Below, one piece after another: positions 29,939 through 36,430 of a stretch of DNA of 64,000 nt. Position 1 is the stretch's first letter, and every line of letters begins with the position of its first letter. Below the pieces are notes generated by a model that saw only the letters and a list, made by a program, of their open reading frames with translations, did not search any database and was not told the origin of the DNA. The DNA is from Dehalococcoidia bacterium (GTDB lineage Bacteria; Chloroflexota; Dehalococcoidia; UBA2979): positions 1,152,001 to 1,216,000 of the forward strand of contig OZ253555.1 of the NCBI GenBank assembly GCA_965262725.1, written 5' to 3'. The translations under genes were made by a program, and so were the position numbers.

Positions 29939-31264
29939 CTACATACCCATGAGTTCGCGGAGAGCGCTGCCGCCACCGCGGCCGCCACCGGCCATAGCCT
30001 GCATGAGTTTCCTAGCTTTCGCGAACTGATTCAAGAGCCTGTTCACATCGGCGGGCGCTGTGCCGGAGCCCGCAGCGACGCGTCGGCGGCGGGATCCGTT
30101 GAGGATCTGGGGCCGCCTCCGCTCCTCCGGTGTCATCGAGCGGATGATCGCCTCGCTCCTCACGAGCTCGCGGTCGTCGACTTGGCTCTGCATCCCGGAC
30201 ATACCCGGCATCATCTCGAGGAGTCCGGCGAGCGAGCCCATCTGCTTCAGGTTCTGCATCTGGTCCAGGAAGTCCTGCAGGTCAAAGTCACCGCTGGCGA
30301 CGCGCTTGGCCACCGCCTTCGCGTCGCTCGCGCCGACCGTCTCCTTGGCGCGCTCGACGAGCGTGACCACGTCGCCCATGCCGAGCACGCGCGAGGCGAA
30401 TCGCTCCGGATGGAACTGCTCCAGCGCCTCCAGCCGTTCGCCGGTCGTGATGAACTTCACCGGGAGGCCCGTCACCGTTCGGACCGAGAGCACGGCGCCA
30501 CCCCGGGTGTCCGAGTCGACCTTCGTGACGACGATGCCCGTCCCTTCCAGCACCTCGTGGAACTCGCTGGCGAGCTCGACGGCGGATTGTCCGGTCATGG
30601 CATCGACGACGATCAAGACCTCGGTCGGGTCGATCGCGTCGGCGAGATCGATCAGGTCGTCGGCGAGGTCGTCGTCGAGGTCGACGCCGCCGCGCGTGTC
30701 GAAGACGACGGCGGTCGCTCCCGAGCGTCTCGCCTCCGCGAGCGCCCGCGTCCCGATCTCGGCGGTGGGCGCCTCCCGCTCCTCGGCGTAGACGGAGAGA
30801 CCGCTCGGTGCGCTCAGGGCCCGGAGCTGTTCGATCGCGGCGACGCGCTCGAAGTCGGTGGCGACCAGCAGCGGCTTCTCGCCGCGCTTCGCGAGATAGA
30901 GGCCGAGCCTCGCAGCGAGCGTGGTCTTCCCCGAGCCCTTGCTGCCGACGAGGAGGTAGACGGACGGGCCCTTCTCGGCGCTCCGGAGCTCGTGGGCGTC
31001 GCCGCCGAGCACCGCGGTCAGCTCCTCGTGCACGATGCCGACCACCTGCTGGCCCGGTGTCAGTGAACGGAGAACCTCTTGCCCGAGCGCGCGCTCGCGC
31101 ACGTGGGACATGAACTCGCGCACGACCTGAAAGTGGACGTCGGCCTCCAGCAGGGCGACGCGCACGTCGCGCAGAGCCTCGTCCAGCTGCGCCTCGGTGA
31201 TGCGGCCGCCCCTCCGCAAGCGCGAAAACGTTCGCGTGAGCCGCTCCGACAGCGCGTCTAGCAT
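29939..31264 (-). CDS. ffh: signal recognition particle protein
   Basis: ALLEADV, GSGKTT, DAMTGQ, RGGAVLS, RVLGMGD and the M-domain SRRRRVAAGSG. Confidence 0.95.
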   Translation of the reverse strand: MLDALSERLTRTFSRLRRGGRITEAQLDEALRDVRVALLEADVHFQVVREFMSHVRERALGQEVLRSLTPGQQVVGIVHEELTAVLGGDAHELRSAEKGPSVYLLVGSKGSGKTTLAARLGLYLAKRGEKPLLVATDFERVAAIEQLRALSAPSGLSVYAEEREAPTAEIGTRALAEARRSGATAVVFDTRGGVDLDDDLADDLIDLADAIDPTEVLIVVDAMTGQSAVELASEFHEVLEGTGIVVTKVDSDTRGGAVLSVRTVTGLPVKFITTGERLEALEQFHPERFASRVLGMGDVVTLVERAKETVGASDAKAVAKRVASGDFDLQDFLDQMQNLKQMGSLAGLLEMMPGMSGMQSQVDDRELVRSEAIIRSMTPEERRRPQILNGSRRRRVAAGSGTAPADVNRLLNQFAKARKLMQAMAGGGRGGGSALRELMGM

Positions 31265-32006
31265 CAGGCGAGTCTATCCGCCGGGCGCGCTACGGACCGC
31301 GGCGTCGCGCGCGCGGGGCCGACGGAGTCCGCGCTCCGAGCGCTGCCGCCGCCCACGCGCGCGGGTGATGCCGCGGCGCACATGGCCCCTAGTGTCCTGA
31401 ATTGGAAATGCGATTGAGATATCCGGTGAGGTTGGTGTGTCCCGAAGTCGAAGGGCGGGTGACGTGATGACGTAACCGGTCTGGAGACATGCTCGTCGTT
31501 GCCAGCCGGTGCGAGTCCGGCACGGGTAACTGTCAGGAGGCCCGTTAGCAGGTCGGCGGCGCGGACGGGAAACGGTCCACGTCGAAGCCCGACGTCAAGA
31601 GCCCTATCAGGGGGAGCAACCAAGCGGTCCGCAGCATCAAGCGAAGCCTGCCGCGTCGTTAACGGATAGTGGAGGAGCCGAGCCCGGCAATTCAGGGCGA
31701 AGGCCATGGACGAGGTGAAGATCCTGAATGCGCGTTGCGCTGCAGCCTCAAGGAACCTCCCGGCGTAAGGGGCGTGGAACGTTTGGAAGGTAGCGACGGG
31801 AACGGGAGAAGCCCTCCCCGGCCCGGCACCCTGCGAGATGGTGTCGGAGCGAGGTGCCCTATAACCGGTCAAAGCCGGGAAGTGGGCAGCTAGCCGGAAG
31901 GGTGACGGAGGGGGTCGTAGTACCGCTTGAGCCGGACGGACAACACAACCGCCGGTGATGGGAAGGACCCCTGCTTTGCTCACGCGTGGGGAGTAGGGAT
32001 GAATCG

Positions 32007-34206
32007 GTGAGTGCCCAAGCGGCTAACTCCATCCAAGACAAGGTCCGAACACTACAACGCACGCTTTACCGGGCGGCCAAGGCCGACCCCAATAGACGCT
32101 TTCATGCGCTCTACGACAAGGTTTATCGCAGAGACATTCTGGAGCGCGCGTGGGAGCAGGTGCGTCGCAATCGCGGCGCAGCCGGTATCGACGGCGTCAC
32201 GCTCGCCGAGGTCGAGCGCTACGGCGTGGAGCGCCTGCTGGATGAACTGGCCACGGAACTGAAGGAGGGAAGATACCGGGTGCAGCCGAGCCGCCGGGTC
32301 TGGATACCCAAGCCCGGTCGGTCGGAAGAGCGCCCGCTCTCGATTCCTTCGGTCCGCGACCGCATCGTGCAGGCGTCGCTGAAGCTCGTGACGGAGCCGG
32401 TCTTCGAGGCCGACTTCCTGCCATGCAGCTTCGGCTTCCGCCCGAAGCGTTCGGCCCATGACGCCCTGCAGGTCCTCATTGACGAGGCGTGGCGGGGCAG
32501 GCGGTGGGTAGTGGAGACGGACATCGCCTCGTGTTTCGAGTCGATACCGCGTGCGTCCGGAAGTCGAAGGGGTGGTGACGTGATGACGTGACCGGTCCGG
32601 AGACATGCTCGTTGCTGCCAGCCGGTGAGAGTCCGGCACGGGTAACTGTCAGGAGGCCCGTTAGCAGGTCGGCGGCGTGGACGGGAAACGGTCTGCGTCG
32701 AAGCCCGACGTCAAGAGCCCTATGAGGGGGAGCAAACGTGCGGTCCGCAGCATGACGCGAAGTCTGCCGCGCCGTGAGACTCGCCTGTCTATTGACAGGA
32801 CCAAGGAGGAGCCGAGCCCGGGTGGTCAGGGCGAAGGCCATGGACGAGGTGAAGATCCTGGAATGCAGCCTCAAGAAACCTCCCGGCGTATGGGACGTGG
32901 AACGTACGGAAGGTAGCGACGGGAACCGGAGAAGCCCTCCCCGGCCCGGCACCCTGTGAGAGGGCGTCGGAGCGAGGCGTCCTATAACCGGTCAGAGCCG
33001 GGAAGTGGACAGCCAGCCGGAAGGGTGGCGGAGGGGGTCGTAGTACCGCTGGAGCCGGACGGACAACATAACCGCCGGTGATGGGAAGGACCCCTACTTT
33101 GTCCGTGCATGTTGCTGGGGGTGTGGACTGGTGAGTGCCCCTCGGGGCTAGCAACCACTTGGTAGGGTTCGAGGCTCTCCGCACATGCTGTACCGGCTGG
33201 CCAAGGCACGACCCACGTTGTGGGGAGCGCTGCATGCCATCTGGTGAAGGGCATCGGTGAGCCGGATGAGGGAGAACCTCACGTCCGGTTCGATGTGGCA
33301 GGGGCTGGAGACGGACGCTGCTATGGCCGTGGAGTTGGGCACCACCGGGAAACCGGCTTGGAACTGATGCGCCACCGCCTACGGCTCGCACCGCGCCAGC
33401 CCCTGACCCTACACGACCGTCTGATGACGGCCGTCGAGGAACGGATATGCGACCGCAATCTCCTGAAGCTGGTACGGGCGATGCTGCGTGCCGGTGTGAT
33501 GGAGTCGGGGGTCGTGCAGCACAGCGCGACGGGTACGCCGCAGGGCGGGGTGATGTCCCCGCTGCTGGCCAATGTCTACCTGCACCGGTTGGACCGGGAC
33601 TGGGAGGCGAAGGGTGATGGCGTGCTGGTGCGCTATGCGGATGACCTCGTGGTGCTCTGCCGGAGCCGGGAGGAAGCGGAGCGGGCGTTGGCCCTGCTGC
33701 GTGACCTGCTGGGTGAGCTCGGACTGGAGCTCAAGGCGGAGAAGACGCGCATCGTGCACCTGCGGGAGGGAGGCGAGGGGCTGGAGTTCCTCGGCTTCGA
33801 GCATCGCTGGGTACGTGCGAAGCGCAACAAGAATATCCAGTTCCTCGCACGCTGGCCCTCACGGCGAGCGATGCAGCGGGCGCGGGACCGCATCCGTGAA
33901 ATCACGGCGCGGTTGCGTCTGCTGCTGAGTCCCCGGCAGGTCGTGGAGGAAGTCAATCGCTACCTCCGCGGCTGGATGAGCTACTTCCGCTACGGCAACT
34001 CGGCGAGGGCGTTCGACGTCCTGCACTGGTTTGCCATGTGGAGACTCAAACTCTGGCTGGGGAAGCGGTTGCGTTGGCGGCGACGCCATCGCGGGCACCC
34101 GTTTCCCGTCGCCGACCGTCTGGGGCTCATCTCGCTAGCTGGACAGCGCGTCGTGGCACCACGGCCATATCGACCGTGGCGGGGCACCCCGCATGCCGCC
34201 CGGTGA
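32007..34206 (+). CDS. ltrA: group II intron reverse transcriptase/maturase, split: join(32007..32550,33413..34206), 445 aa, no obvious endonuclease domain
   Basis: RPLSIPSVRDRIVQ and SFGFRP in exon 1; DIASCFESIP/HDRL across the junction; GTPQGGVMSPLLANVYL, RYADD, FLGF and GWMSYF in exon 2. Confidence 0.92.
32551..33412 (+). mobile_element. inner ORF-less group II intron inserted in the RT gene
   Basis: 5' end GTGCG. Domains I-III are near-copies of the outer intron. Domain V is at about 33259-33291 and the 3' end is CCCTAC. Removing it restores the RT frame exactly. Confidence 0.93.
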
Positions 34207-34511
34207 AGGGCATCGGTGAGCCGGATGAGGGAAAACCTCACGTCCGGTTCGAGGCGGCAGGGGCTGGAGACGGACGATGCTACGGCTGTGGAGATGGGCG
34301 CCACCGGGAAACCGGCCTGGCAATATGCGCCACCGCCTACGGCTCGCACCGCGCCAGCCCCTGACCCTACTCAAAGATCTGGTCCGCGGACTTGTGCCAG
34401 ATGAAGCGCCTCCGGTGCTCGTTTCCAGTTGCGACCCAAGCCTCCACTGAGCGGACCAGGCCTGCGAGGCTCGGTGCGATTGTTTTCAGCATTTGCAACT
34501 CGGGACACTAG

Positions 34512-36430
34512 GACGCTGGTGCCAAACTCGAGTCACGGCGGCCGCGGTCCGTGTGAGAGGGAGGTGTAGCGTCGGGTGGGCGCGGGCCGGGAGTTGCGCC
34601 GCCAGGGGGTGAGCGGGGCCGGCATCGACCCGGGATCGGGACCCCCGGACGCAGGCTCTCCCGCAGTGGCCCCCGCCTCCGTCTCCCCTACGAGGGCGCC
34701 GCGACCGCCCACCGGGTTGGTGTGTAGTGCAGCCCCAGCGTCGCCAGCCGCGCCAGGTTGACTGAGGCGGCGAGCAGGTTGTGGTCGGCATCGACCTTGA
34801 GACGGCCCCGGACACGGGCGACGCGGCCCCCGTGTCTGCGACGGGTCGTATGCGCCACCTTGCGTTCGACTATCGAGCGGACCGTGCGGTAGCCGGAGAG
34901 CCACCCGGGAGTCTGCTGGCGTGCCCGGGCGGCCGCGAGACTGGCCTCGTGGATCCCGACCTCGACGGTGCGGCCCGCAGGCGATGTGGTGCACTGGGCG
35001 CGAAGCGGACAGGGGCTGCAGGCGCCCCGGAAGTGGGCGGTCCCCGGGCCGTCGGAGGCGCGGCGAATCGGCACGGTCACCTCCGCGGGACAGGTGACGG
35101 TCCCCCTCTCCAGGTCGACGGTGAATCGCTCCTTGCTGAAACGGTGATGCGGTGCGGTCGCTCTCTGAGTGCGGCAGCGGGACTCGACCCCGTGCTCCTC
35201 CAGCAGCGACTGGAACGCGCCCGAGCCGTAGGCCGAATCGCCGTAGACGGTCGCCGTCCCGGTGCTCGCCTCCGCAGCCGGGTCGTCGGCATCGTCGTGT
35301 TCGCCTGCGTCCTCCAGCAGGTCCGTGATCAACTCCTCCGCGATATCCCCGTCCGCCACGTTGCCTGCGGTCACCGTGGTGTGGGTGATGAGCTCCGACT
35401 CCGGGTCGATCGCCAGGTGCCCCTTGTAGCCATCGAAGCCGTGCGCAGAGCTCTTGCGCCCGTGGCGGGCGTCGGGGTCCACGGTCGAGATGATGCGGTC
35501 CCTCGCCACCCGCCGCGCAATCACGAAGCGGCCGCCTTCGTCCTGCTCGAGGTCCTGCCCCACCACGGCCGCACACAGCTCGCCTGCCCGCGCAACGCGC
35601 TCGTCGAGCTCCCGTCCCTCCAGCACCCGGAGGCAGCTGGAGACATCGGTCGCCAGTTCGTCGATGAGCGCCCGCGCAGCCTCGCGGTCCTCCCAGTCAC
35701 ACGGAGGCTTGCCGGGAGCTCGATAGTCGTCATCGCGCCTCAGCACCGCCCGCAGCTCGGCCTCGAGCCCGGACTCACCGAGGCGCTCCGCCTCCCGCAG
35801 CAGCCCGCGGAGCGACGACCGGAGCAATGTCACCGTGTCCTGCGTCGCGACCGCGTCGTAGAGCGGCGTCGAGTCCAGCACTCGCTGCGCAGAGAGCAGC
35901 TTCGCCTCGCGCGCCACCACAAGCGTGGCCTCGAAGATGCGCCGGGGGCGCTCGGAGCGGGCGAGGCGCGCCCGCATCGAGACCAGGACCGTGTGCACGA
36001 AGCCCGGCGCGTCGTAGTCGAGTCCGCCGCAGGCGAACTTCCAGCGGGCGTCCCACTCGAAGGCCGCCACCGCCTCACGGTCGGACAGGCCGTGGAGACG
36101 CTGCAGCACCATGACCGTGGCGACCACCCGCGGGGGAACGCTCCGGCGGCCGCGAGCGGAGAAGAGGTCGGCGAACATCTCGTCGGGGAAGAGGCGTTCG
36201 CCGTGGCGGGCAAGGAGGGTCCAGATGGAGTTCCCGGGGAGCCTCTCAGCGACGTAGGCGGTGCTCTTGAAGAAGGTAAGGGGCTGCCTGGAGGTCTCTC
36301 CCTGTGTCATGAGCGAGACTTTCACTGCGAACAGAACTGATCACCAACATGATCGCATTCCGTGACTCAGTTCGCAACGATGCCCCGCCTCCAGAAGGCA
36401 CCCACCGCCCTACAAAAAAACACCAGGCTC
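34512..36430 (-). mobile_element. IS1182-like insertion sequence flanked by CTAG
   Basis: Ends GACGCTGGTG and rc GAGCCTGGTG match 8/10. CTAG at 34508-34511 and 36431-36434. Confidence 0.75.
34688..36310 (-). CDS. IS1182-family (IS5-related) DDE transposase
   Basis: GRRSVPP, LSDREA, VLDST, DPDARHG.K, GYKGH, YGDSAYG, CxxCPLRxxC and RSIVERK. Confidence 0.9.
   Translation of the reverse strand: MTQGETSRQPLTFFKSTAYVAERLPGNSIWTLLARHGERLFPDEMFADLFSARGRRSVPPRVVATVMVLQRLHGLSDREAVAAFEWDARWKFACGGLDYDAPGFVHTVLVSMRARLARSERPRRIFEATLVVAREAKLLSAQRVLDSTPLYDAVATQDTVTLLRSSLRGLLREAERLGESGLEAELRAVLRRDDDYRAPGKPPCDWEDREAARALIDELATDVSSCLRVLEGRELDERVARAGELCAAVVGQDLEQDEGGRFVIARRVARDRIISTVDPDARHGRKSSAHGFDGYKGHLAIDPESELITHTTVTAGNVADGDIAEELITDLLEDAGEHDDADDPAAEASTGTATVYGDSAYGSGAFQSLLEEHGVESRCRTQRATAPHHRFSKERFTVDLERGTVTCPAEVTVPIRRASDGPGTAHFRGACSPCPLRAQCTTSPAGRTVEVGIHEASLAAARARQQTPGWLSGYRTVRSIVERKVAHTTRRRHGGRVARVRGRLKVDADHNLLAASVNLARLATLGLHYTPTRWAVAAPS

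Follow-up and report, generated by a model that had tools for sequence, protein, structure and literature searches.

A gene-less group II intron resident in the reverse transcriptase gene of a related group II intron in a Dehalococcoidia bacterium

Group II introns are ribozymes with some protein-independent activity, and where one such intron lies inside another the pair is known as a twintron. Here we describe a twintron in a 64,000-nucleotide stretch of the genome of a Dehalococcoidia bacterium (Chloroflexota; UBA2979; GenBank assembly GCA_965262725.1, contig OZ253555.1, positions 1,152,001 to 1,216,000 of the forward strand), hereafter referred to as the window, in which an intron without a gene of its own interrupts the reverse transcriptase (RT) gene of a related intron. 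A previous reading, made from the sequence alone (the sequence-only reading), had proposed that this RT can be produced only after the inner intron has been spliced out. Coordinates without a prefix are those of the window, and the nested elements are laid out as follows.

31435..34370, + strand: outer group II intron 'A', including the inner intron, together the composite twintron (Rfam D1D4-4 at 31503-31639; Intron_gpII at 34216-34283)
32007..32550, + strand: first part of the RT open reading frame (ORF), 181 codons plus one base, with RT motifs up to motif 2 (Pfam RVT_1, TIGR04416)
32551..33412, + strand: inner group II intron, ORF-less, 862 nt (Rfam D1D4-4, 102.8 bits; domains V and VI present)
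32589..32591, + strand: stop codon met by the RT frame, read from the GTG at 32007, while the RNA is unspliced
33259..33291, + strand: inner intron domain V (domain V matches; hairpin of -21.5 kcal/mol, z-score -4.6)
33297..33408, + strand: domain VI of the inner intron, forming a long hairpin in which the A at 33406 is bulged (-60.7 kcal/mol, z-score -4.55)
33413..34206, + strand: second part of the RT ORF, with RT motifs 3-7 including YADD, and the maturase/X domain (Pfam RVT_1, GIIM at 53.3 bits, TIGR04416)
34218..34250, + strand: outer intron domain V (Rfam matches and fold)
34256..34366, + strand: domain VI of the outer intron, forming a long hairpin in which the A at 34364 is bulged (-62.2 kcal/mol, z-score -4.03)

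Thus a complete intron stands within a complete intron in the same orientation, and its removal restores the outer intron exactly, to a length of 2074 nt; the inner intron itself contains no ORF of note. The identification of both elements as group II introns is far beyond chance. The Rfam model group-II-D1D4-4 scores 102.8 bits on the inner (32619-32755) and 95.3 bits on the outer intron (31503-31639) against a cut-off of 49, Intron_gpII recovers the outer intron at 41.5 bits (cut-off 40) and the inner at 37.5 bits, below the cut-off with an E-value of 5.8e-05, and plastid domain V models match at 34218-34250 in the outer and 33259-33291 in the inner intron. The intron ends, which were fixed by comparison with empty targets (outer intron) and by ORF comparison, conform to GUGYG and CUAC, being GTGTG (31435)...CCCTAC (34370) in the outer and GTGCG (32551)...CCCTAC (33412) in the inner intron, and in both the 3' end falls two to four bases past domain VI. 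Each domain V is a hairpin with the AGC triad and a two-base bulge, and in the predicted fold of each domain VI one A alone bulges from the basal stem, 7 nt from the 3' end, with CC and the terminal CUAC after it; this A is the predicted branch point in both introns. Domain VI has a conserved basal stem and a lengthened arm that ends in a GAAA-type tip; at about 113 nt it is roughly three times the usual size in inner and outer intron alike. An alignment of seven sequences of the lineage contains 158 consensus pairs, of which the inner intron forms 156, the same number as the outer, and compensatory changes occur at 27 of the 158 across the seven relatives. Inner and outer intron differ by 69 substitutions, of which 25 lie in paired columns (these being 56% of all columns), and 14 of the 18 pairs touched stay standard. 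Judged by these features, both look like complete and fully competent ribozymes, and the insert, lying in the domain IV loop that holds the ORF, should leave the outer ribozyme free to fold.

The protein-coding capacity of the outer intron, by contrast, is divided. Read from its GTG at 32007, the RT frame continues for 194 codons, enters the inner intron and terminates at 32589-32591; in-silico removal of 32551-33412 gives a single 1338-nt ORF of 445 amino acids with one terminal stop and YADD at residue 256. The sequence-only reading had called both the stop at 32591 and the restored 445-residue protein with its YADD and maturase regions, and both proved correct to the nucleotide. The codon formed at the junction, C/AC, specifies histidine, such that the spliced RT reads ...ETDIASCFESIP-H-DRLMTAVEERIC across the joint between 32550 and 33413. 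On Pfam RVT_1 the two halves cover positions 1-83 and 90-204, with GIIM on the second half, and on TIGR04416 (353 positions) they cover 2-137 and 140-352, so that nothing has been lost or gained at the joint. Their TIGR04416 scores are 172.4 and 214.5 bits, each alone below the cut-off of 300, compared with 396.6 bits for an uninterrupted orthologue in a genome of the same genus (G003). This orthologue (L031:710-2044, minus strand) is an RT of 444 amino acids that matches across the joint, reading ...CFESIPHDRLM... at the junction, and is 87.9% identical to the spliced 445-residue RT over 445 columns with one gap. The outer intron also occurs without the insert in two other genomes (G008 and G018), where the target sequence is near-identical. 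A Pfam search of the outer-intron RT found no endonuclease domain.

The insert follows codon 181 of 445, in the midst of the polymerase domain at RT motif 2 (...F-E-S-I-P/H-D...), and the whole RT/maturase is therefore translatable only from RNA that has been freed of the inner intron. Initiation of the intron-encoded protein (IEP) downstream of the insert, as in Thermosynechococcus elongatus, offers no way round, as a product started there lacks RT motifs 0-2. To this extent the earlier proposal that RT output needs inner-intron splicing stands, since unspliced RNA cannot give the complete RT of this lineage; the feedback loop or switch that it went on to suggest is a logical possibility rather than a finding. 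An open frame of 328 amino acids does run from a GTG inside the inner intron through domains V and VI into the C-terminal half of the RT (33220-34206), although at 65-70% G+C it may be a chance frame, and its product would likewise be without RT motifs 0-2.

The genome consists of a single 3.67-Mb contig, in which copies were located by blastn with the three parts of the composite and by inspection of flanks. Twelve copies of the A intron are present, at 99.8-100% identity, and all twelve carry the inner intron at the same site; six are clean composites (2935-2936 nt), one has two inner introns and five have inserts of 1.2-2.6 kb. A diverged outer intron, B (75-81% nucleotide identity; RT 77% identical), is present in three copies, again with the inner intron at the same site in all three. 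A further 12 inner introns stand alone (11 whole, one interrupted) at sites that match the exon-binding sites (EBS) less well. This makes 28 inner copies at 13 distinct site sequences; the 24 full-length copies are 100% identical, a 3'-truncated copy in B2 is 99.9% identical over 857 nt with a single terminal mismatch, and three interrupted copies are 100% identical in their aligned segments. Where copies have been hit, the inserts are insertion sequences (IS) of the IS21, IS256 and IS5 types. No uninterrupted RT of the A/B lineage was found among its 15 genes, nor among the 46 RVT_1 and 17 GIIM matches in the genome, all of which are accounted for. Four of the solo inner introns (C1:537614, 1018206, 380701 and 291159) are apparently antisense within genes (phosphotriesterase-like, histidine-kinase-like, IS630-like transposase and an unnamed ORF), an orientation in which splicing does not restore the gene, and about five others lie in sense within plausible genes, both judged from translated flanks only. 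Beyond this genome, the full-length inner intron with its RT flanks was found in none of 400 other genomes of the same class, with the two best candidates per genome scored, and the 32-nt junction had no exact match in a collection of species-representative genomes.

Removal of the inner intron leaves an intact 445-residue ORF in nine of the 12 A copies, the other three being broken by IS elements, one of which sits inside the inner intron itself; the one B copy tested (B3) yields an ORF of 444 residues. In all six RT pairs compared, those involving twintron RTs included, dN/dS is 0.24-0.29, which equals the value between two uninterrupted relatives and shows that the RT genes were under constraint until recently. 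All copies are near-identical, however, and for that reason neither the intact ORFs nor dN/dS reveal much about the period after invasion. One A copy (G000:C1:549500-551223, L062) contains two inner introns head to tail with no base between them; the best explanation is that an already occupied site, its 5' exon still in place, received a second insertion. The tandem pair shows that an occupied site, in which both intron-binding sites (IBS1 and IBS2) are kept, can be re-invaded.

Inner and outer intron are 86% identical from domain I to the start of domain IV (562 columns) and 89% identical over domains V and VI (197 columns). The similarity breaks off eight bases past the RT start codon and picks up again about 30 nt ahead of the RT stop, a pattern that identifies the inner intron as an ORF-deletion relative of the outer lineage, though not as one recently derived from the outer copies now resident in the genome. 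An ORF-less relative of 911 nt, 73% identical to the inner intron, exists in two copies in a genome of another genus of the same family (G360; C1:1972909-1973819 and C1:1859038-1859948), with no RT gene in its flanks (L053). Inner and outer intron differ most at two short segments, each complementary to the intron's own 5' exon, which we interpret as the EBS elements.

31663..31668, + strand: outer intron EBS2 CGGATA, complementary to -15..-10 of its own 5' exon; columns covary with the exon in five related introns
31688..31692, + strand: outer intron EBS1 CAATT, pairing with GGTTG at -5..-1 (three Watson-Crick and two G-U pairs); same alignment columns as the inner EBS1
32778..32783, + strand: inner intron EBS2 GACTCG, fully complementary to CGAGTC at -14..-9 of the RT site; segment replaced in the outer intron
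32822..32826, + strand: inner intron EBS1 GTGGT, pairing with ACCGC at -5..-1 of the RT site

Pairing of EBS1 with IBS1 and of EBS2 with IBS2 is indicated in both introns by complementarity and by covariation, the EBS columns changing in step with the 5' exon in five introns (inner, outer, B, the intron of G018 and the ORF-less relative in G360). All 13 distinct insertion sites of the inner intron have CGAG at -14..-11 and C-Y-R-C at -4..-1, and an EBS1 of GTGGT explains the purine at -2 and the pyrimidine at -3 in every one of them. A different EBS1 in the inner intron, GCGGT in the loop at nt 183-194, was considered and rejected; it leaves the A at -2 in three of the 13 targets unexplained, and the five-intron covariation falls at nt 272-276 instead. 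A single-base EBS3 placed in that same loop failed for the B intron. On the pairing evidence, the RT coding sequence at motif 2 is the inner intron's matched homing site, and the inner intron has the multiple identical copies at distinct, EBS-matching sites that characterize a non-autonomous mobile intron.

The outer intron is itself always found within the same element of about 190 bp, in an empty copy of which a 25-nt terminal inverted repeat can be seen. This is a miniature inverted-repeat transposable element (MITE) whose sequence comes from the right end of an IS630-family element, a full-length relative of which scores 206 bits with the NCBIfam IS630 transposase model, and the intron target is antisense to the C-terminal codons of the IS630 transposase. 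In the window the MITE is divided between the two exons.

31387..31434, - strand: left part of the ~190-bp IS630-derived MITE, forming the outer intron 5' exon, with IBS2 TATCCG and IBS1 GGTTG
34371..34512, - strand: right part of the IS630-derived MITE, forming the outer intron 3' exon

Twelve MITE copies in the genome are occupied and 14 are empty. The flanks of the occupied copies are 82-100% identical to those in the window, and because occupied targets differ in this way the intron must have entered each separately rather than being copied along with the MITE. Cumulative GC skew places the replication origin near 0.40 Mb and the terminus near 2.51 Mb. Relative to the fork direction inferred from skew, 11 of the 12 solo inner introns have their sense strand co-oriented, the twelfth lying about 26 kb beyond the flat skew maximum, and the same is true of 10 of 12 A copies as against five of 14 empty targets (Fisher p = 0.021). 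A bias of this kind is expected, as described in PMC4424553, for endonuclease-less introns that use primers at the replication fork; a strand bias, not necessarily in the same sense, is also reported in PMC8919778. The many young copies, together with the strand bias, indicate very recent RT-dependent insertion at replication forks. Across the 12 outer A copies there are six differences in the first 1116 aligned nucleotides and none in the last 958; these differences, and the two A copies in the wrong orientation, were considered as a means of distinguishing movement of the composite as a unit from separate mobility of its parts, and neither decides.

Taking these observations together, we consider it probable that the inner intron is a gene-less rider that has made its home in the RT gene of its own helper, forming a group II twintron in which the supply of RT licenses itself. 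The inner intron keeps the outer-type domain IV region up to the RT start codon and has a related ribozyme, for which reason the RT of the outer intron would be its most plausible helper. Under this scheme the inner intron would depend on the A/B RT, acting in trans, for efficient splicing and mobility; a little spliced mRNA would give RT, which would in turn promote more splicing, and the loop would be seeded either by basal protein-independent splicing or by protein carried over. The young copies and their strand bias suggest a gate that would be leaky enough for mobility rather than a block.

Several points weigh against this interpretation. The whole RT family could have been silenced very recently. 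The data leave undecided whether the composite moves as a unit or the inner intron re-invades new outer copies. A second intron family in the same genome, described below, provides 12 uninterrupted RTs as other possible helpers, and protein-independent splicing is possible likewise. Perfect identity among repeats can be inflated by assembly polishing. Finally, no joint across the inner intron was found in the run X1 (a metatranscriptome) or X2 (possibly RNA). X1 contains short domain V contigs and one contig of 263 nt whose sequence is that of 32702-32964, within the inner intron; X2 contains, besides domain V contigs, one of 179 nt with the sequence of 33014-33192 and one from an empty target; DNA carry-over is possible in both. 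A further run, X8, of DNA or RNA and under another organism label, joins 32549 to 33412 (two contigs, depth 20) and 32548 to 33411 (one contig). Hence an uninterrupted or a spliced form, from one or another diverged copy, exists there. Another X8 contig skips 161 nt within 34013-34175, in the C-terminal region of the RT, and is a deletion variant under that other organism label.

Perhaps the most serious alternative, which we nonetheless regard as unlikely, is that the system has reached a dead end: the rider swept through all RT genes, its last invasion ended the RT supply, and the present copies are young relics awaiting decay. The complete lack of uninterrupted genes (0 of 15) speaks for it, as does the missing joint in X1 and X2; six of the 15 outer copies and two of the 12 solo inner introns have already been hit by IS elements or another intron, and with copies this similar the lack of decay is no argument against it. 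Conversely, the inner ribozyme appears fully competent, nine of 12 A RT ORFs are intact after its removal, and one occupied site has been re-invaded, as the tandem pair attests; given some protein-independent activity of group II introns, a full shut-off would be unexpected.

A stronger form of the self-licensing scheme, in which the loop is obligately autocatalytic because the sole maturase genes are those interrupted by the dependent rider, a cell is either ON (RT sufficient to go on splicing its own mRNA, with both introns mobile) or OFF (neither RT nor splicing), these states are inherited through the cytoplasm and the composite twintron rather than the bare outer intron is the unit of retrohoming, seems to us doubtful.

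The second intron family bears on whether the gate matters at all. Introns of the D1D4-6 class, about 1.9 kb long, provide 12 uninterrupted RT ORFs of about 499 amino acids (open frames of 475-500; for example, C1:1850549-1851247), and nine of the 12 introns are co-oriented with replication. The two families also meet. A four-level nest (G000:C1:732582-737446; L015, L041) comprises a target, a B intron, the inner intron and a D1D4-6 intron with an intact 499-residue RT, the last having entered at nt 722/723 of the inner intron, within its domain V hairpin. Elsewhere, one inner intron lies inside a D1D4-6 RT ORF (G000:C1:1524130-1524991, L043; ...NPIYESGY/YGFSHGFRPG...). Another heap of elements, at C1:1874000-1879000 (L044), contains 340 nt from the 5' part of an inner-like intron (79% identity). 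A D1D4-6 intron comes next, and its RT is in turn interrupted by 1336 nt of inserted sequence, at the RT position that the inner intron occupies in L043. If a D1D4-6 RT, or efficient self-splicing, served to splice and mobilize the inner intron, the gate would be moot and the interrupted RT either lost cargo or constitutively expressed. The 12 uninterrupted D1D4-6 RT/maturase ORFs and the meetings of the two families lend this some appeal, and yet we find it rather improbable. The A and D1D4-6 RTs share just 38-42% amino acid identity, whereas T. elongatus IEPs that are 87% identical still differ in the introns that they mobilize, as described in PMC2882425; moreover, the inner intron has retained the outer-type domain IV region as far as the RT start codon. 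The D1D4-6 RT site pairs fully with EBS1 and EBS2 of the inner intron, yet only one of 10 identical 24-nt sites is occupied, against 15 of 15 in the A/B RT genes.

That the nested intron evolved, or has been kept, as a regulatory throttle on the mobility of both introns is still less likely. It has the logic of the layout in its favour, and for fungi PMC4801052 reports exploring a group II intron, nested in a homing-endonuclease ORF, as a means of regulating expression; however, 28 inner and 12 twintron copies, nearly all identical, bespeak no effective restraint, and a selfish rider with a safe homing site gives the same pattern with no need of benefit to host or helper. The sequence-only reading had suggested such a throttle, which fits badly with 28 inner copies (24 of them full-length and identical) and 12 near-identical twintrons in diverged targets. 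It had also named intact RT copies elsewhere as evidence to the contrary, and here the outcome is divided: there are none in the A/B lineage, while the D1D4-6 class has its twelve. Lastly, an assembly artefact, in which collapsed or mis-joined repeats created the nesting or the uniform occupancy, might be feared in a repeat-rich genome with perfectly identical copies, but can be given almost no credence where the genome is one 3.67-Mb contig in which each copy stands between unique flanks, and where independent public runs under three organism labels contain 86-95% of the composite's words, with contigs that reach both junctions.

The layout is of a known kind, and the closest known case is that of T. 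elongatus, as described in PMC2882425. There, ORF-less TeI3 (F3) introns interrupt the IEP ORF of five of eight TeI4 (F1) introns, and trans mobilization of ORF-less introns by a related IEP and the formation of twintrons have been shown experimentally, with one IEP mobilizing both partners. The two systems share an ORF-less derivative of the same family at one conserved site in the RT ORF of related introns, identical inner copies with further ORF-less copies elsewhere, and the homing of some introns into insertion sequences (PMC2882425). They differ in that the T. elongatus insert lies between the first two ATG codons, so that IEP could be made from the second ATG without splicing, whereas here it lies in RT motif 2 with no bypass, and in that two of eight ORFs are continuous there, as against none of 15 here (PMC2882425). 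The outer introns of T. elongatus are also diverged (PMC2882425); here 12 are near-identical, which makes movement of the composite a live option. A difference in ribozyme class is possible on weak grounds, the T. elongatus introns being IIB1/CL (PMC2882425) while the present RT compares best with IIC-type RTs among solved structures. What seems new here is that no start codon allows a bypass and that every helper gene is occupied.

Other nested systems resemble this one in part. In Methanosarcina acetivorans, the ORFs of related introns serve as homing sites for RT-encoding and ORF-less introns alike; the nests have several levels and no coding exons around them, and provide a perpetual homing site (PMC4424553, PMC2882425); this archaeal case differs in reaching up to five levels through repeated insertion balanced by recombinational deletion (PMC4424553), compared with up to four here. 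The twintron of Trichodesmium erythraeum, for which sequential splicing was demonstrated by RT-PCR and northern blots (PMC4649490), and those of Euglena plastids (PMC4424553) are similarly introns within introns. In these, as described, the inner intron breaks a ribozyme domain, the outer intron cannot fold while it is present, and a host gene relies on its removal; here the inner intron lies in the domain IV ORF loop, gates a protein and not the outer ribozyme, and has a MITE for its outer exons. In Chaetomium thermophilum a group IIA1 intron is placed in the homing-endonuclease ORF of a group I intron, and its removal precedes the production of a mobility protein (PMC4801052), as would be the case here; that system differs in its intron types and its protein, and its inner intron is independent of the protein that it gates (PMC4801052).

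Around the twintron region the window contains the following neighbouring genes. Elsewhere in the genome there is a weak RVT_1 match (C1:314319-314723; 32.6 bits) in an open frame of 468 amino acids that is unrelated to both intron families.

29939-31264, - strand: ffh (Pfam SRP54 domains), flanking the twintron region on one side
34688-36325, - strand: gene for a 545-aa DDE transposase, adjoining the MITE that hosts the twintron (Pfam DDE_Tnp_1_6, DUF772, DDE_Tnp_1)

The twintron offers a clean natural case of how a non-autonomous retroelement lives with its helper. The rider's home is the most conserved coding sequence of the helper, so that the target lasts for as long as the helper does, and every helper copy is filled, so that the helper protein depends on removal of the rider. 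The case bears on whether nested splicing limits RT expression or merely delays it, on whether a composite intron can retrohome as a unit, and on how strictly a maturase keeps to its own lineage in a cell that also contains another class. Its practical interest is modest, in that a nested intron could act as a self-limiting gate on the expression of RT from targetrons.

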